The position numbers and the translations under genes are program-made. Below the pieces are notes generated by a model. The model did no database searches. It was not told the DNA's origin and saw only the letters and a program-made list of their open reading frames with translations. Below, in pieces: positions 1-22,355 of a stretch of 64,000 bases of DNA (positions are counted from its first letter, which is position 1; the number at the start of each line of letters is the position of its first letter). Location: NCBI GenBank assembly GCA_965541585.1, contig CBEUCH010000008.1:1-64000 (forward strand), given 5' to 3'. This DNA is from an uncultured bacterium (GTDB lineage: Bacteria; Zixibacteria; MSB-5A5; UBA10806).

Positions 1-346
<346 letters not shown>

Positions 347-435
347 AAAAATTTCGATGAAACCTTTATTCCCGAAGAGCGGCAGCATTCTATCAGGTTG
401 TTAAAGAGCATTGTTCTTTGCCATCAGAAAATTTT

Positions 436-553
436 TCCCGGTCGCAATGGCGTGGGGGAAATACCCGTTCCCATTCCGAACACGGCAGTCAAGCCCCACA
501 GCGCCGATGGTACTGCCCCCTGGCAGGGGTGGGAGAGTAGGACGTCGCCGGGA
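436..553 (+). rRNA. rrf: 5S rRNA
   Basis: CCCGTTCCCATTCCGAACACGGCAGTCAAGCC, GCCGATGGTACT, GGGAGAGTAGG; terminal stem TCCCGG/CCGGGA; ~118 nt. Confidence 0.98.
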
Positions 554-8326: not shown

Positions 8327-8500
8327 TCTGCTTTCGGCGATCGTAGTCATCCGCCCAAAATAAACATCTACTCTGGACTATACTTACCAGTCTATCCTCA
8401 AAAAAATATATTTAACCCGGAAACCATTCCGGCGCATATTACGTTGAATACAATGATTATGATATTCAAAACCGGAAATAATCTGCAAAGGAGCAGCATC

Positions 8501-8932
8501 ATGAAGAAAACTTTAGGCATCGTTCTGGCATTAACACTCGTTTTCGCCGTTTCATTGGCTTACGCCTGTGGCGAGAAAAGATCATCGGCAGATGCCACGA
8601 AGGCTGGCGCAGAATTAACGACGTCATCCAAACAGTCCTGTGCTTCCAGGGCGGACGTCACTGCAGCTGTAGCCAAAGGGGATCAGGCGAAAATTTACAA
8701 CTTGAATGCCTCGAAAACTTGTGCGACAAAAACTCAAAAGGCATCGGTTAAGAATGCTGATGCTAAGGGCCAGTACTGTCCGGCATCCCTTTCCTGCCCT
8801 ACGCCGTGCGTCAAGCAGCCAGGAGAAGCTGAGTTCAAGAAGTCCTCGGTTTCCACGGATTCCAAGGCCGATCTGAATAAGATGGCGTCGACATCGGATA
8901 AGGTTGCGCCGGATGCAAGCACCCTCAAATAA
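8501..8932 (+). CDS. Secreted Cys/Ala/Lys-rich hypothetical protein
   Basis: RBS AAGGAG; signal peptide MKKTLGIVLALTLVFAVSLAYA; scattered Cys incl. YCPASLSCPTPC. Confidence 0.75.
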   Translation: MKKTLGIVLALTLVFAVSLAYACGEKRSSADATKAGAELTTSSKQSCASRADVTAAVAKGDQAKIYNLNASKTCATKTQKASVKNADAKGQYCPASLSCPTPCVKQPGEAEFKKSSVSTDSKADLNKMASTSDKVAPDASTLK

Positions 8933-9023
8933 TAAGGTTTTGAGGGAACCAAAATTGAAAAGACAATTGACCTGAAATCGAAGTAGTTTTGAAACTTTTG
9001 AAAAATCAGTTACAGAGGAGACG

Positions 9024-9503
9024 ATGATGAAAATATCTGTCATTATTCTTTCGGCGTTATTCCTGGTCGCGGGATCGCAGGCATCGGATGAAGAGGCCTG
9101 GTTAGACATGGACAATTGCGCCATTTGTAAACCGCTTCTGGAGCAGGATCCCCATCTTATGGATCACATGACCTGGAAGCATCACAACATCTCGGACGGC
9201 CTGGTATCGGTTACCGTAATCGATCCGGAGTACCAATCTTCGTATGAGAAGGCCGGCGAGAAGATGAACGGCGTCATCGAACGGATGCAGGCCGGCGAGG
9301 AGACCTATACCTGTAATATGTGCACCGAATTGGGCGCTATTTTCCAGGCGGGTGTCAACAGGGAATCGGTTAAATCGGATAATGTCAGGGTTGCGATCAC
9401 GACCTCAGACAATCCGACAATGGTCAAAAGGATACAGACCTGGGGAGCTCGCACCAACAAGGAGATGCTGGCCGCGATGGAGATGGAGAAGGCAAGCAGA
9501 TAA
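9024..9503 (+). CDS. Secreted Met/Cys-rich hypothetical protein with two CxxC motifs
   Basis: RBS GAGGAG; signal peptide; CAIC and CNMC; HLMDHMTWKHH. Confidence 0.8.
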   Translation: MMKISVIILSALFLVAGSQASDEEAWLDMDNCAICKPLLEQDPHLMDHMTWKHHNISDGLVSVTVIDPEYQSSYEKAGEKMNGVIERMQAGEETYTCNMCTELGAIFQAGVNRESVKSDNVRVAITTSDNPTMVKRIQTWGARTNKEMLAAMEMEKASR

Positions 9504-11060: not shown

Positions 11061-11510
11061 TTGAAACCGTATGAAGTTGTCCTGAAACTGATTCCCGACG
11101 AGGAAGAGGTATATGATTTAGGCGAGATACGCGGACGCTGCGGAGGCAGAAGGTCCATTCTCGTCCCCACCACCAGGAGGCTAATGGTTTGCGGGATTGG
11201 CTTATTCGGTTTCAAAAAGAAGATAGACGATTATTCCTGGGGAAAATTCGATCATATCAGGATCGACGAGGGTTGGGTCTCTTCCACCCTGGAATTGAAA
11301 TTCCGCAGGAAAGATGGGACCTTGAGGCTGGAAGGAACAGGAAAGGACGATTTCCGCAGACTCTACAAGCGCATACGGGAACGAATCACCAAATACGAGG
11401 ACAAATTCCAGATTTCGTTCAAGATCTGCCGCCAATGCGGTGAGACCGTCAACTATGTAGCAAAAAAATGCCCTCATTGCGGGGGTGAATTCAAACTGCC
11501 GGAACATTAG
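11061..11510 (+). CDS. PH-like domain protein with C-terminal zinc ribbon
   Basis: C-terminal CRQC...CPHCG; N-terminal bPH-like pattern (LV.TTRRL, Y.W..F..I). Confidence 0.7.
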   Translation: MKPYEVVLKLIPDEEEVYDLGEIRGRCGGRRSILVPTTRRLMVCGIGLFGFKKKIDDYSWGKFDHIRIDEGWVSSTLELKFRRKDGTLRLEGTGKDDFRRLYKRIRERITKYEDKFQISFKICRQCGETVNYVAKKCPHCGGEFKLPEH

Positions 11511-14081: not shown

Positions 14082-14161
14082 GTAGTATTGTAGATTGGAA
14101 TCTTGAAGGAGAATGAGAGCGGTCAATTGAAAGATTCAAATATTATGGAAAGGACAAGATC

Positions 14162-15340
14162 ATGAAGAAAACCGCGGCATTATTTACGCTTCTGGTGTTC
14201 GCTGCCGGCCCGGCGGCCAGGGCCGTGGAGGATGCGGGTTCGTTCGCCGAGGCCAAATCGATGGCGGCTGAATTGAACAGGCCGCTTCTGGTCGATTTCT
14301 TCACCGACTGGTGAGGCTCCTGCAAGAGGTTCGCTCGTGCAGCGGACTCAGATGATGATGTCAAGACAGCCCTGGAAGCCGTATTTCTCTACCAGATCGA
14401 TGCCGAAAAGGGCGAGGGCGTGGATCTGGCCAAGGAATTCAAGGTCAAAGGATACCCGACGTTTGTCATGGTTAACGGGGCGGGTGAAACGCTTGATCGC
14501 TGGATAGGCTACGAGAAGAATTTTTTCATCAAAACCATGGATAAAGCTTTGAAAGATCTCTCCACAATCGAGGATAAGCTGGCCTCCTACGAGAAAAAGC
14601 CAACCGCCGGAACAGCTGATGCCCTGGGCCGTTATAGTTCATCGCTGAAGGAATACGTAAACGCGGTCAATTATTACAGCACAGCCCAGAAGATCAAAGA
14701 CAAGCCATCTGACGATTATACTTATGAAATTTTCCAAAACACCTCCTACGGAGTAAAAGGCGAGCATTATACTTTTGAGGATATGCTGGCGGCTGCCGAA
14801 AACGTTGTTAATTCGCAGACCGCGGAGCCGGAGGAGGTGGTCAGTACGGCCATCTCGGTGACCAAGAGGGCGAAGAAGAATGATCGGCTCGATCTCATGG
14901 AATCCTATATAGAGACCGGCCTGAAGATAACATCGCAGGCGGATGATCCCGACTCGAAGGATGCTCACAATGAACTGATGGTTGAAAAATCGCTTCATAT
15001 CACTGGTGATAAAGCGGCCGCCGCTAAATATAAGATGGCCACCATGCCCGACGGCTGGCTTGAGGATGCCGGGAAGCTCAATAGTTTCTGCTGGTGGTGC
15101 TTTGAGAATACTGTTAACCTTGAGGATGCGGAAAAGCTGTCTCGCAAATCGGTGGAGCTGGCTAAAGCGGGCAAACGAAAGGCGATGAATCTCGATACCT
15201 TAGCGGAGATCTGCAACGCTCTTGATAATTGCCATGAGGCGGTGGATCTGATCAGGATGGCTATGGCGGAGGATCCTGAAAGCAAATATTATCCTAAACA
15301 ACTCGAGAGGTTTGAGAAGATACTGGCATCGCAAAATTAG
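14162..15340 (+). CDS. Exported thioredoxin-fold probable selenoprotein (WUGSC) with TPR-like C-terminus, 392 aa
   Basis: RBS AAGGA + ATG 14162; signal peptide; RPLLVDFFTDW-TGA(14312-14314)-GSCK in frame with ORF 14420..15340 (cis-Pro GYPT). Confidence 0.88.
14312..14350 (+). promoter_or_regulatory. Bacterial SECIS-like hairpin
   Basis: CTGCA-a-GAG-[GTTCG]-CTC-g-TGCAG (14320-14342); lower stem TGAG/CTCA; apical loop starts with G, 14 nt after the TGA. Confidence 0.7.
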
Positions 15341-15361
15341 AGCCGCTCAAGGTTTTTTTAT

Positions 15362-15396
15362 AAAGGCCCCCCACGTTTATGAGGGGCTTTTATTTT
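15362..15396 (+). terminator. Intrinsic terminator
   Basis: AAAGGCCCC...GGGGCTTTT followed by ATTTT. Confidence 0.65.
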
Positions 15397-15455
15397 GCAG
15401 GATTATCGGAATTTGAAGTTGCATCTATCGATCTCCGGAAATAGATTCAGCTGAG

Positions 15456-16031: not shown

Positions 16032-16247
16032 TCCGCCGGCGCGCGATTCCCTTTTTAATATAGCGACAAGCCTGTTCACAAGCTCCTGCCGGATATCGGT
16101 TAAGGCCGCAAAAACAGGCATCCCGAACAGCAAAGATCCCCGGACTATATCCGAGATAGACATCCCGTATCGTCGTGAAAGGGTCTCGAGTTCCCCTCTG
16201 AGATCGGGTGAAAGCCTGAGCTGAATATGGCGCACATCATCGTTCAT
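16020..16247 (-). CDS. Small ribbon-helix-helix (CopG-like) protein
   Basis: HIQLRLS.DL...LE.LS...GMSISDIVR; overlaps the upstream gene's end. Confidence 0.65.
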   Translation of the reverse strand: MNDDVRHIQLRLSPDLRGELETLSRRYGMSISDIVRGSLLFGMPVFAALTDIRQELVNRLVAILKRESRAGGSGE

Positions 16248-16734
16248 CCTGCATCCTCCCGGTTATGTTGCGGTTTATATGTTTGATATGGGCTTTTAAT
16301 ATCTGCGGCGGGTAGATCCGATCCCCCACCTCTGTCTCAATTTTGCTGCAGATTCCACTCCAGGAATCGCCATCTTTTTTGTTTTGCAAAATCGAATTAA
16401 TTTTTTCTTTTTGTGGATGCGTGCATATTTTGCAGACTCCTTTGATTTGCAATCCCCATCTTTTTCTGACGAATTCGGCCAGCATCATTTTCAACTGCCG
16501 TTTAGCCTCGTAGATTAATTTGACGACCTCATTTTCAGGGATTTTGTTCCTTTCGGCGATTTGCGGCACGGTTAGCCCCTCGAAATACTTTTCATGAACG
16601 ATCTGCCCCAGGTCAGAATCGAGGCCTTCTAATGCGTCATCTACCGCCTCCACGAGTTCCGGATCGGGTGGTTGAGATGCAGATGCCTTTAGATGCTGAA
16701 TGATCTCCGGATCGAGATAGATTATTCTGTGCAT
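16237..16734 (-). CDS. Sigma70 region-4-like HTH protein with CxxC/His zinc-site-like C-domain
   Basis: VDDALEGL......IVHEKYFEGLT..QIA; CKICTHP...LKAHIKH; RBS GGGAGG. Confidence 0.65.
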   Translation of the reverse strand: MHRIIYLDPEIIQHLKASASQPPDPELVEAVDDALEGLDSDLGQIVHEKYFEGLTVPQIAERNKIPENEVVKLIYEAKRQLKMMLAEFVRKRWGLQIKGVCKICTHPQKEKINSILQNKKDGDSWSGICSKIETEVGDRIYPPQILKAHIKHINRNITGRMQDER

Positions 16735-18802: not shown

Positions 18803-19112
18803 TGTTAGCTCAACAAGTTCCGGGTAATATAGCCTTTTCCTGGTGAAAAAGAAGAGGAACTGTACCGGGAGAGGCTTGAATTTGATTGACCGGATCGATA
18901 GGATCAATTATATTATATCTATAATCAAGGGAGATGTGTGTACAAACGATACAATATGGCCTCGGTCCTATCAGCGGTGGTTGCCATCGTAATTTCTGCC
19001 CATAATACGGTACCTGCTCAAATATCTTATTCAAACAGCCCGCCGGAGCCTCGCTATTCTATTACCATAGGCGGTGGCTGGGGGAATTATGATATGAAAC
19101 GAATCAGCGGCT
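18729..19112 (+). repeat. 384-bp direct duplication, copy 1 (copy 2 at 20601-20984)
   Basis: Colinear near-identical sequence at constant offset 1872; covers MFS 5' end, intergenic DNA and OMP N-terminus. Confidence 0.95.
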
Positions 19113-19705
19113 CATATTATTCATCGGCTCAATATAGCTGGCCGTTCGATGCTACACGTTATCGTCGAATTTCCGGAGGATCGGGTGCTTTCATCGAAGC
19201 CGGTTACCGTTTCTGGAGGAAAGCTTCAGTCAGTATTGGGGCATTGCATTTGAAAGGAGCAAATAACGACATTTATGAGCCTCAGCAGTTCTTAGATGAT
19301 TATAATAACCGCGAATCCATCAATCATGAATTCCGGGCGTGGCTCGTTTCACCGTATGTGGAATTGAAATATGCGTACACAATAAAACCCATGGATTTAT
19401 TCGCAGGTATAGGGCTGTCCTATCTTTTTGCCGGAGCCATGTATTCACATGTTTTAGTCGACTATCCCGCTCATCCTCCATCTCTGCCAGAGGAGCGCAG
19501 GGATTTCAGGACCCGCGGCCTCGGTTACTTATTGACCGCCGGCATATCGTATAAGGTTTCAAGAAATATCTATGTTAATTCAAAAATGGGATACCGATTG
19601 ATGCAGACGGGCGATCTGGAAGACAAAAGCGGCCGGGTCTGGGAGGATATGAATCTCGACTTCAGCGGCACTTACCTGATGGCCGGTGTAACCTTGAAAT
19701 TGTAG
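18938..19705 (+). CDS. Outer-membrane beta-barrel protein A1
   Basis: Signal peptide; alternating Tyr/Gly-rich strands; terminal strand NLDFSGTYLMAGVTLKL. Confidence 0.8.
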   Translation: MYKRYNMASVLSAVVAIVISAHNTVPAQISYSNSPPEPRYSITIGGGWGNYDMKRISGSYYSSAQYSWPFDATRYRRISGGSGAFIEAGYRFWRKASVSIGALHLKGANNDIYEPQQFLDDYNNRESINHEFRAWLVSPYVELKYAYTIKPMDLFAGIGLSYLFAGAMYSHVLVDYPAHPPSLPEERRDFRTRGLGYLLTAGISYKVSRNIYVNSKMGYRLMQTGDLEDKSGRVWEDMNLDFSGTYLMAGVTLKL

Positions 19706-19749
19706 ATATAATACAAGAATCACGGATTTCTTTTGCTGCGGTTTGTCTG

Positions 19750-20502
19750 ATGAAGCTCAATTTAAAAGTTAATGTGCGATATCTGACTATATTCTCTTTA
19801 ATGTCATGGCTATTCCCTGCGGCGATATTTTCGCAGAGTCCGGAAATAGGGAAGAGTTCTGACGGCAGATTTCTATTCAGCTTTAACGGTGGTTGGTCGC
19901 ATCCCAAAATGGAAGATTTGCGGGGATTTTATGATGAGTTCCTTGGAAGCGTATTGAAAGACAAACTGGAGTTAGGCGCCCGAGTTCAATATTTTCCTTC
20001 AAAAAACATCTCGATCGGTGTGGGAATATCGTATATGAGAACCGGGGCAGAAGGCAAGACAACCTATGAATATAGAGATCTGGACGGGAATATCCTGTTT
20101 GTAGATATCGCTGAGTATTCTCTCCATGCCTCGGCGATTTACCCGCATCTTATTATGCGCTACCTTTTTTCCTTCAAGGACCGGGACTATTATATTTCGG
20201 TCGGTCAGGGTTTCTGTTTTGGCACGGCGCAGAGATACTGGCGCCAGTATGGGGGGTATTTTGAGGATTCGTTCGATAGACAGTACAGGTCCGGTGGTCC
20301 GGGATTCTTGCTGGCCGCCGGTACATCGTACAATTTCCACAAAAGTTACGCAGCCAACATAGAGATGGGCTATAGATATCTCGTAACGGCGGAACTTGTA
20401 AACGGAGACGGAGAATACGTTATCGTTGGTTCGGATGGACGCGGCGCCAACCTGGATTTCAGCGGTATCTATATTTCAGGAGGCATATCCTTTCGCTTAT
20501 GA
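19750..20502 (+). CDS. Outer-membrane beta-barrel protein B1
   Basis: Signal peptide; EMGYRYL; terminal NLDFSGIYISGGISFRL. Confidence 0.8.
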   Translation: MKLNLKVNVRYLTIFSLMSWLFPAAIFSQSPEIGKSSDGRFLFSFNGGWSHPKMEDLRGFYDEFLGSVLKDKLELGARVQYFPSKNISIGVGISYMRTGAEGKTTYEYRDLDGNILFVDIAEYSLHASAIYPHLIMRYLFSFKDRDYYISVGQGFCFGTAQRYWRQYGGYFEDSFDRQYRSGGPGFLLAAGTSYNFHKSYAANIEMGYRYLVTAELVNGDGEYVIVGSDGRGANLDFSGIYISGGISFRL

Positions 20503-20594
20503 TTCTTGAAGGAGAATTTCCAACGTCTCGGATCGCTCTACGAGCCTTAGGGTTGACCCGACACCAGATTCGCCGGTCGGGCAACCTGACTGCA

Positions 20595-20674
20595 CATCCA
20601 ACAAGAAATTTGCGGGCATTGGGGGAGAAGAGTCTTACGTGATGGAGGTAGTCTTTAATTTGCGCCCAGATCAT
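20595..20674 (-). pseudogene. Truncated 5' fragment of the MFS gene produced by duplication
   Basis: MIWAQIKDYLHHVRLFSPNARKFLVG matches the MFS N-terminus, then homology stops. Confidence 0.85.
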
Positions 20675-20984
20675 TGTCAACTCAACAAGTTCCGGGCAAT
20701 ATAATCTTTTTTTGGTGAAAAAGAAGAGGAACTATACCTGGAGAGGCTTGAATTTGATTGACCGGATCGATAGGATCAATTATATTATATCTACAATCAA
20801 GGGGAATGTGTGTACAGACGATACAACATGATCTCGGTCCTATCAGCGGTGGTTGCCATCGTAATTTCTGCCCATAATTCGGTTCCTGCTCAAATATCTT
20901 ATTCAGACGGCCCGCCGGAGCCCCGCTATTCTATTACCATAGGTGGTGGCTGGGGGAATTATGATATGAAACAAATCAGCGGCT
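20601..20984 (+). repeat. 384-bp direct duplication, copy 2
   Basis: See 18729-19112. Confidence 0.95.
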
Positions 20985-21583
20985 ACTATATAGATGGTAA
21001 TCAACAGGAGCATTATTTTGACTTGCATGAAAATAATGAGCGTATATCTGGAGGCCCCGGGCTATTTGGAGATGCCGGAATATATGTCTTGAGGAATTGG
21101 TCGATAAGTGTTGGAATATTATATTTGACAGGGGAAGGCAAATTCCCTTCATCGGAACAGTCTTTTATGGATGATTACAATAACCGCAAGCCCCGCCCAA
21201 CGCAATTTTTATCCGCTGATTTGCTGGCGCCAAATATGAAATTACAATATAATCTAGTCATAGATCCGCTGCATCTATTCTCGAATGTGGGAATGGCATA
21301 TCTTTTCGGAAGAATTAATTATCCGGTTTACACAGGAGCTCCGACTGTTCCGCCAGAGCTTCCCCCCATGGAGAAGAGACCTTTCTCTGGGCAGGGGATT
21401 GGTTACTTATTCTCAGTGGGGGCATTCTATAGAATTGCGGGTCTCTTTGATATCGGCTCTGAAATGGGTTTTCGTGTCTTGAAGGTGGGGACGCCGAAGG
21501 ATAATGATGGTAATGAGTGGAACGGCCTGGACATAGGTTTCAGCGGTCCATATGTGGCGGGTCGTTTGTCGTTGGTACTATAA
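20810..21583 (+). CDS. Outer-membrane beta-barrel protein A2 (paralog of A1)
   Basis: N-terminal ~58 aa nearly identical to A1; shared DDYNNR; diverged interior. Confidence 0.8.
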   Translation: MYRRYNMISVLSAVVAIVISAHNSVPAQISYSDGPPEPRYSITIGGGWGNYDMKQISGYYIDGNQQEHYFDLHENNERISGGPGLFGDAGIYVLRNWSISVGILYLTGEGKFPSSEQSFMDDYNNRKPRPTQFLSADLLAPNMKLQYNLVIDPLHLFSNVGMAYLFGRINYPVYTGAPTVPPELPPMEKRPFSGQGIGYLFSVGAFYRIAGLFDIGSEMGFRVLKVGTPKDNDGNEWNGLDIGFSGPYVAGRLSLVL

Positions 21584-21605
21584 GAAAGAAAAATATCGAA
21601 GGATA

Positions 21606-22355
21606 ATGGATAGAGCGTTGTCCAATTTTCCAACAAGCTCACGGATAATATTTATCGCCTGTTTTGCTCTCCTTATGAGTATTGTGATTCCCTTTGAAGA
21701 ATCTTTATCCCAGGTAATTAAAGCTAATTATGATCCGGGGAAAAAATTCGATATCAGAATTGCCGGTGGTTGGGGAAGCGCGAGAATGTCCAGGTTGAAC
21801 GAACGTACCAGAGCTTTTTATGCAAAGGAAATCAATTCGGCCTACGAATTCGATGGAGAGTTCGGATATTTTTTGACTCCAAAAACTTCGGTGAATGTTG
21901 GTTTGTTATATCTTGAATCCAGACGTCTGCAGCCGGAAGGTTATGTCATTATGGAAAATGGGCGCGATTATTCGATAGATGCTTCGATGATAAGCCCTTA
22001 TTCTCTAATCAGATATTTTTTCCCGATGACGAACGTTGATTATTACCTGTCTTTTGGACAGGGGCTTTGTTTCGGAAATATGGATTATTATTATCAGATT
22101 CCCGGCGGCACTCGCACGTATTATTTTGGAGGGTCATATTCAGCTATCGGTGTCGGTTTTCTAGCATCGGCAGGGGCATATTATAGAATACGTCATTTCT
22201 TTTCCCTTGGTGCGGAGATGGGGTATAGGTATTTATCGACGGGCGATCTAGAAAACAAAGAAGGAGAAACTTTTTCAACGTTCAGCGGAGATAATAACAT
22301 CAATCTGGATTTCAGCGGTTTCTATATCTCGGGAGGCATATCCTTTCGCTTATGA
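21606..22355 (+). CDS. Outer-membrane beta-barrel protein B2 (paralog of B1)
   Basis: GQGLCFG, EMGYRYL, NLDFSGFYISGGISFRL. Confidence 0.8.
   Translation: MDRALSNFPTSSRIIFIACFALLMSIVIPFEESLSQVIKANYDPGKKFDIRIAGGWGSARMSRLNERTRAFYAKEINSAYEFDGEFGYFLTPKTSVNVGLLYLESRRLQPEGYVIMENGRDYSIDASMISPYSLIRYFFPMTNVDYYLSFGQGLCFGNMDYYYQIPGGTRTYYFGGSYSAIGVGFLASAGAYYRIRHFFSLGAEMGYRYLSTGDLENKEGETFSTFSGDNNINLDFSGFYISGGISFRL

Follow-up and report, generated by a model that had tools for sequence, protein, structure and literature searches.

A candidate exported thioredoxin-TPR selenoprotein, truncated in annotation, and its conserved SECIS hairpin in two bacterial phyla

In the window studied here, a 64,000-nucleotide stretch of a contig from an uncultured bacterium of the Zixibacteria lineage, gene callers report a 306-aa open reading frame downstream of a stretch of coding potential that a single TGA interrupts. 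The initial annotation of the locus proposed that this TGA is read as selenocysteine (Sec), the two parts forming one exported thioredoxin-TPR oxidoreductase. The question raised is hence whether the triplet encodes Sec, encodes another amino acid or ends translation, and, if it encodes Sec, which RNA element would direct the insertion and what the complete protein may do. The evidence gathered from the gene, its homologues and the remainder of the genome points to an exported Sec protein that would be decoded through SelB, exported by means of its signal peptide and active in redox chemistry, a reading to which we assign a probability of about 0.88.

The reading frame and its UGA column

Every element of the frame named in the initial annotation is present in the sequence: the ATG with its AAGGA, a signal-peptide-like N-terminus (MKKTAALFTLLVFAAGPAARA), the stretch RPLLVDFFTDW, the TGA at 14312-14314 and GSCK, from where the frame stays open to the TAG at 15338-15340, for a protein of 392 aa. 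The TGA is the only internal stop between the ATG at 14162 and that TAG (F-F-T-D-W-stop-G-S-C-K). The gene has its own ribosome-binding site and an upstream gap of 246 nt, a promoter scan returned nothing above chance, and the gene is followed by a probable intrinsic terminator (z -3.12, 1 of 200 shuffles as stable) that is absent from the output of the consensus terminator scan. The features of the locus are collected in Table 1.

Table 1. Positions in the window of the features of the predicted thioredoxin-TPR selenoprotein gene
Feature	Position	Strand	Remarks
Shine-Dalgarno-like AAGGA	14150..14154	+	putative function, from sequence; 7 nt before ATG 14162
Whole gene, predicted exported thioredoxin-TPR selenoprotein	14162..15340	+	392 aa, UGA as Sec51
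Putative Sec-pathway signal peptide, residues 1-21	14162..14224	+	by eye: KK, hydrophobic core, A-R-A before cleavage site
Thioredoxin-fold domain, about residues 22-132	14225..14557	+	Pfam and structural matches
In-frame TGA, predicted Sec51	14312..14314	+	position 1 of W-U-G-S-C
Hairpin of the initial annotation	14320..14342	+	alternative, mutually exclusive fold; rejected as SECIS
Resolving Cys54	14321..14323	+	TG of codon invariant in 47 Sec and 24 non-Sec aligned rows
Conserved bSECIS, stem GGUUCGCU/AGCGGACU	14328..14348 (core 14330-14346)	+	loop CGUGC at 14336-14340, 21 nt after UGA
306-aa ORF reported by gene callers	14420..15340	+	table-11 ORF, without signal peptide and active site
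Pro99 of G-Y-P-T loop	14456..14458	+	thioredoxin cis-proline position; invariant 86/86
All-helical TPR-like solenoid	14558..15337	+	15 helices in model; conserved W299, W312-C313
Probable intrinsic terminator	15360..15397	+	GC-rich hairpin then T run, between gene and pncA

Comparison of the TGA column across homologues, a check that the initial annotation had suggested, separates a meaningful UGA from an accident. In 89 distinct family genes from two phyla, the column holds TGA in 61, Cys in 27 and Ala in one, so that TGA or Cys occupies it in 88/89; TAA or TAG is never found there, and TGA is kept down to about 28% identity. The initial annotation had placed the TGA on the first Cys of a thioredoxin WCxxC motif. 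Of these 89 genes, 51 come from a first set, after removal of seven duplicate loci, of the short, thioredoxin-only matches L063-L082 and of one match lacking the column. A phylum-wide search added 20 new genes (each of its 14 new TGA matches, and six of its 11 new matches with no stop), and the remainder belong to the 20 best among 55 second-phylum matches, two of which were already counted. The same genome carries a paralogue (C19:15925-17094) of 32% identity in which TGA again occupies the column (G-U-E-Y-C) and the SECIS core is shared; the two genes that follow it are presumably related to hflK/hflC. One genome (G009) holds a copy with Ala at the Sec column (W-A-P-T-C) and another copy, with Cys, that is split into two frames (L036 and L053).

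Homologues were found in 30/61 genomes, including 23/23 of the same order, in 42/151 genomes across the phylum, where 31 of the 50 matches contain one TGA, and in 53/121 genomes of a second phylum, where TGA is seen in 48/55 matches. The closest named homologues are Zixiibacteriota, the second phylum is Krumholzibacteriota (that of locus L062), and proteins named from Eisenbacteria likewise include full-length Cys forms. Among the 120 protein database homologues listed, of 337 matches at E up to 1e-15, 81 do not have the stretch across the UGA column, and truncation by standard gene callers, as the initial annotation had anticipated, is therefore the rule; a family present in those 42/151 and 53/121 sampled genomes is mostly on record stripped of signal peptide and active site, under the names 'TPR protein' or 'hypothetical'. 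The other 39 are full length, with Cys at the Sec column in 38 and Trp in one.

A nonsense mutation or sequencing error, leaving a 306-aa TPR fragment or a pseudogene, has nothing in its favor beyond the database annotation itself and is refuted by this conservation: the same TGA recurs in 61 genes with never a TAA or TAG, the upstream frame is intact and encodes a signal peptide, and a covarying hairpin is present. Contigs of four sequencing runs, from the DNA of relatives, span the UGA region, and among the rows listed none differs at 14312-14314, an observation given no weight as evidence; the sequencing runs listed for the locus include no RNA run and hold small shares only. The chance of a nonsense mutation or sequencing error is negligible.

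The machinery for Sec insertion, for which the initial annotation had proposed a search, is complete. A tRNA-Sec(UCA) lies at C11:66865 (ARAGORN; Rfam RF01852, 75.6 bits), about 6 kb from consecutive selD, selA and selB genes (C11:72796-77032), each above its curated cut-off and the first with an in-frame TGA of its own, in a genome that is 98% complete. The features of a SelB-dependent selenoprotein are found together, with a UGA that aligns with Cys, selA, selB, selC and selD in the genome, and a hairpin within the bSECIS consensus. Both selA and selB were detected in 29/29 relatives carrying the family (28/29 above cut-off for each). Of 21 second-phylum genomes tested, 18 gave a selB match, among them 6/7 with the no-stop form; the gene was not found in 2/14 TGA-bearing genomes (G270 and G275).

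Reading of the UGA as Cys or Trp, through a tRNA-Cys with UCA anticodon or a changed genetic code, would be suggested by a database homologue (P0065, a protein record only) that has Trp at the column. Against it, the tRNA-Sec beside the sel genes is the sole UCA tRNA found in the genome, long frames end in TGA more often than in any other stop (561 of the 1582 open frames of at least 300 codons), which agrees with the claim that the code is not recoded genome-wide, and the hairpin tracks the TGA, as SelB decoding predicts. In the tree, P0065 lies near a TGA-bearing gene, and its Trp is perhaps the product of gene calling under a UGA=Trp code. We regard decoding as Cys or Trp as highly improbable; from comparative sequence evidence, a real selenoprotein gene in which UGA 14312 is decoded as Sec appears close to assured.

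Other in-frame TGA candidates were noted in the genome at C16:77902 (-), C12:6063 (-), C4:96079 and 101236 (+), and C11:72826 (+). They include an AhpC-TSA/redoxin domain joined to a secretion tail at the C-terminus, a UxxC protein of the DUF3179 kind, two long frames with CxxU, and SelD, and their predicted hairpins, with loops GUU, GUC and GGUC at spacings of 17-33 nt, are unlike that of the thioredoxin-TPR family.

Two mutually exclusive hairpins after the UGA

The consensus for bacterial SECIS elements has a loop of 3-9 nt with G in its first two bases, an upper stem of 4-16 bp, a distance of 16-37 nt from UGA to loop and an energy of at most -7.5 kcal/mol (PMC13188914, Fig. 2). The hairpin drawn in the initial annotation (14320-14342) exists as letters, and with the UGA included it is the minimum-energy fold, but its identity as SECIS did not hold. 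All eight of its pairs are intact in 3/33 Sec genes and its loop begins 14 nt after the UGA, short of the consensus; across 47 aligned Sec genes 62.8% of cells are paired, a level that 491/500 shuffles reach, and the covariation suggested as a check is nil. The drawn hairpin is no more stable than shuffled sequence (z -1.19 and -0.32).

A second hairpin, overlapping the first and displaced about 7 nt to its 3' side, is the one that evolution has preserved. Counting the U of UGA as 1, its stem joins nucleotides 19-24 to 30-35; in the 47 aligned Sec genes (44 distinct), 93.6% of cells are paired and five of the six pairs show changes on both sides. None of 500 shuffles reaches either this paired fraction or the covariation score, counts that are not probabilities because the genomes are related, and each slid register stays below 49%. 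The hairpin at 14328-14348 agrees with the four parts of the consensus, having a 5-nt loop whose second and third bases are G and U, 8 bp, a spacing of 21 nt and -9.6 kcal/mol. Taken alone it is not stable beyond shuffles (z -1.48), so that stability, in which neither hairpin surpasses shuffled sequence, was discarded as evidence, and an Rfam search reported no SECIS in the window. That the minimum-energy hairpin beside the UGA is not the conserved SECIS implies that folding of a single sequence misleads here. The conserved hairpin becomes the preferred fold after removal of the first 8 bases, and these, we infer, would be covered by the ribosome with the UGA in its A site.

A motif test on 14328-14348, consisting of the four inner pairs and the loop [CG]G[UG]G[ACU], is passed by 61/61 Sec genes and by 1/28 others. 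The 33/33 Sec genes of the first set pass by construction, since the test was defined on them; among held-out genes it separates 14/14 Sec from 0/6 Cys members and, in the second phylum, again 14/14 from 0/6, for a held-out Sec total of 28/28. About 5% of synonymous redraws of the codons pass the test, and conservation of the protein does not, for that reason, account for the hairpin by itself, although part of the stem conservation could be protein-level. Genome-wide, the motif matches 585 times at spacings of 12-36 after 123,017 TGA triplets; requiring a spacing of 21, at least five pairs and open flanks leaves only the two paralogues. In all likelihood, SelB would bind the hairpin at 14328-14348 and bring Sec-tRNA(Sec) to UGA 14312, giving U51-G-S-C54.

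Architecture and proposed function

Residues 27-118 match Pfam Thioredoxin (PF00085), Thioredoxin_2 (PF13098) and Thioredoxin_7 (PF13899) above their cut-offs, with the U/CxxC at a helix start and a conserved proline loop, as in other thioredoxin-fold UxxC proteins, and TPR_12 matches residues 319-368 weakly, under the Pfam cut-off. The cis form of the proline in a loop of the G-Y-P-T type is a known feature of the thioredoxin fold, and the loop was pointed out in the initial annotation; its proline is invariant in the 86 family genes compared. An AlphaFold2 model of the mature chain, built on an alignment of 112 sequences (mean pLDDT 96.8), presents a thioredoxin fold followed by 15 helices. 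In fold searches, the first 111 residues match thioredoxins (Z about 14, rmsd 2.2-2.4 over 106-111 residues) and the remainder matches TPR solenoids, in accordance with the helical TPR-like tail first proposed; no solved chain found in these searches fits the whole 392-aa protein well. Within the solenoid, W299 is present in 86/86 and C313 in 84/86 family genes, and the near-invariant W299...W312-C313 patch (window 15056-15100) is possibly a second redox or binding site.

The proposed export is consistent with a signal-peptide-like hydrophobic segment that lies 40-49 residues N-terminal of the Sec column in 88/88 family genes having the N-terminus, as judged by a hydropathy heuristic. The signal peptide would very probably route the chain through the Sec translocon into the periplasm, and most members of the family, in which the lipobox pattern occurs in 3/88, are predicted to have no membrane anchor. 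In thioredoxins, the first active-site residue attacks a disulfide and the second, a Cys, resolves the intermediate. By analogy of fold, Sec51 would, on balance, be expected to attack a substrate disulfide or an oxidized Cys, with Cys54 resolving to a selenenylsulfide that a DsbD relay from cytoplasmic thioredoxin would re-reduce, the protein acting as a reductase or isomerase, not an oxidase; the TPR solenoid would, with similar likelihood, bind a substrate or partner. The genome encodes a full DsbD (N-terminal, membrane and thioredoxin domains, on contig C1), and neither DsbB nor VKOR was found in it, a combination that favors reductase or isomerase over oxidase activity. DsbB was likewise found in 0/29 relatives, and the DsbD/CcdA membrane domain is present in 29/29, a co-occurrence that says little because 10/14 control genomes also carry that membrane family. 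DsbD is probably the electron source.

The same Sec protein might act mainly as an envelope chaperedoxin, its TPR part holding unfolded exported proteins and its selenol reducing or shielding their cysteines, in the manner of the cytoplasmic CnoX of Caulobacter. This differs in emphasis from the reductase or isomerase reading, with which it is compatible, and we consider it possible though doubtful. With CnoX/YbbN (E. coli 3qou, Salmonella 3qdn), the protein shares the order of an N-terminal thioredoxin followed by a C-terminal TPR domain, both YbbN chains being in the top Foldseek rows with about 345 columns aligned, and its TPR part has conserved aromatic residues. Caulobacter CnoX has a catalytic motif at the thioredoxin site, as here, and combines a WCGPC reductase with holdase activity, but it passes its substrates to cytoplasmic GroEL and DnaK, which are out of reach of an exported protein (PMC6282202). 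Moreover, over the whole chain the protein and YbbN superpose poorly (TM 0.23, rmsd 21 Å, 12-15% identity; Foldseek E 6.5e-05, rmsd 21.5), an outcome that domain hinges can produce, and the CnoX model is absent from the NCBIfam matches. The predicted selenoprotein also departs from CnoX/YbbN in having Sec and not Cys or Ser, a longer TPR part (371 vs. about 284 residues) and a different domain arrangement. With the domain order of CnoX/YbbN but the wrong location, since the signal-peptide-like segment of 88/88 members (by the heuristic) is at odds with the cytoplasmic location that marks CnoX, it is not itself a CnoX but may act as one does.

Alternatively, the protein could be a reductase dedicated to one partner, whether in apocytochrome c maturation (CcmG/ResA-like) or for another envelope enzyme such as a sulfatase, its TPR part docking on that partner. 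TPR domains are known in cytochrome c maturation factors, and the closest solved thioredoxin domains include DsbD gamma, DsbH and exported Bacteroides proteins. The best matches of the thioredoxin domain are to extracytoplasmic reductases of the DsbD gamma, DsbH and Thioredoxin_7 types (2kuc, 1vrs, 2ju5), led in both sequence and fold by 2kuc (E 9.8e-16, Z 13.9), which have neither the Sec nor the TPR solenoid that are combined here. Yet the neighbors clustered from 78 loci, with flanks mostly of 1-3 kb, include no recurrent gene of this kind and no conserved neighbor pointing to a substrate, and most members have no membrane anchor (lipobox 3/88). A dedicated reductase is, on these data, unlikely.

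Whichever its substrate, a DsbD-fed Sec reductase or isomerase of this form would belong to a well-known class, in which its architecture is new. Among bacterial selenoproteins the UxxC type with a thioredoxin fold is the most common, and those in Table 1 of a recent catalogue include Thioredoxin (PF00085, experimentally verified), a 'Thiol:disulfide interchange protein' (PF13098), a protein resembling thiol-disulfide isomerases (cd02966), SaoT and a HUIPC-motif protein (PMC13188914). The present gene shares with these a thioredoxin fold over the PF00085 and PF13098 cut-offs, a UxxC motif and an in-frame UGA with a consensus-type bSECIS, and is set apart from their descriptions by its signal peptide and 260-residue TPR solenoid (PMC13188914). 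In its accessible text, that review nowhere uses TPR, tetratrico-, periplasm or signal peptide and, to the same extent, names no TPR form and no export among its 119 families (PMC13188914). None of the NCBIfam selenoprotein models (UGSC NF041046, TsoB NF045694, SaoT, HUIPC) was passed, only TsoB appearing at E up to 0.01 with 34.8 bits against a cut-off of 805. The U-G-S-C motif is shared with the UGSC-containing selenoprotein (NF041046), whose model does not match here; a search of the genome for that family gave no match, nor did the controls, which makes the search uninformative. As G-S occurs in only 7/61 Sec members, the likeness is a coincidence. No description of an exported thioredoxin-TPR selenoprotein family was found in the literature searched, and BSepDB may include such genes under a thioredoxin heading. 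The novelty lies in the exported thioredoxin-TPR architecture, the chemistry of the UxxC class being unsurprising, and the gene would place a Sec thioredoxin in the cell envelope in a form missing from the 119-family catalogue.

Exchange of Sec and Cys, and the genomic surroundings

Genes with Sec and genes with Cys are mixed with one another within each paralogue clade and each phylum, and at least 14 changes are required by a tree of 86 of them (FastTree under LG and WAG, with the Sec column and SECIS-coding residues masked and three short genes dropped). With this tree rooted at its midpoint, without an outgroup, the direction of change lies on a nearly flat front, in which one origin and 15 losses are about equivalent to 17-18 origins and no loss. 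The history of the family is probably one mostly of Sec loss. For one thing, the same hairpin core would otherwise have arisen many times, although the other Sec candidates of the genome use different loops and spacings. In addition, Cys members retain remnants of the SECIS: they match on average 8.3/13 SECIS positions, vs. 6.4 in outside thioredoxins, and 57.6% of their cells are paired at the conserved stem, a level reached by 3/500 shuffles, a signal for which relatedness could account in part. Individual Cys-coded genes illustrate different states, with stem and loop whole in L022 (G022), 6/6 pairs with a changed loop in L050 (G012), and the residues AAREA kept with the hairpin gone by synonymous changes in L102 (G076).

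Absence of the Sec machinery as the cause of the Cys forms is ruled out for the 29 relatives, all of which have selA and selB matches. We hold with moderate confidence that Sec has repeatedly been switched to Cys with the machinery kept, as the sequences suggest. The change from Sec to Cys is described as rare in bacteria and documented mainly for FdhA and SelD (PMC13188914, section 10), and the thioredoxin-TPR family would accordingly be a counter-example. Switching with the machinery intact, together with remnant hairpins in Cys genes, makes both its direction and its cause testable and, if true, would supply natural Sec/Cys pairs, some very close, with which to test the gain from selenium outside the cytoplasm. 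A broader synthesis, which we put forward only tentatively, would have the family act in the envelope of two poorly known phyla as a seleno-chaperedoxin, a Sec reductase supplied by DsbD and fitted with a TPR arm for holdase activity, in lineages where DsbB was not found. In this synthesis, the helix that follows the active site would owe five of its residues (A/T-R/G-E/A-A/V), in the two paralogues and the two phyla alike, to a single ancestral SECIS, and Sec would then have given way to Cys 12-15 times in genomes that kept selA and selB, with remnants of the SECIS in every state of decay.

The setting of the gene between pncB and pncA, emphasized in the initial annotation, proved a local matter. 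The names hold, with nicotinate phosphoribosyltransferase (pncB) at 363 of 378 bits and nicotinamidase (pncA) at 170.5 of 174, both just under the cut-off, but the position is not conserved: pncB flanks the gene in 3/13 and pncA in 5/13 same-family orthologue loci (L004-L013 and L015-L017), among which some contigs end early and the pncA match of L015 is in two pieces. With the flank kept in so few relatives, a link of the selenoprotein gene to pncB or pncA was rejected as incidental. In seven loci (L007-L013) the place directly upstream is taken by a PH-domain gene instead.

Two neighbors within short range are more constant than pncA and pncB in family f1, namely a sigma-70 region-4 protein (window 16237-16734, -), in 12 loci, and a PH-domain/zinc-ribbon protein (window 11061-11510, +), in seven. 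Elsewhere, contig C5 of genome G000 encodes a third protein of thioredoxin plus helical repeats, shorter at 283 aa, which carries a signal like that of lipoproteins and the Cys-containing motif WCKWC (L124:821-1672, -). In the remainder of the window, four tandem ORFs of 250-267 aa (18938-22355, +), alike in alternating pairs and with a hydrophobic last residue, resemble by eye outer-membrane beta-barrel proteins, two small exported proteins that contain Cys and match no Pfam family lie at 8444-9503 (+), and positions 1-553 (+) hold the end of a 23S rRNA gene and a 5S rRNA gene.
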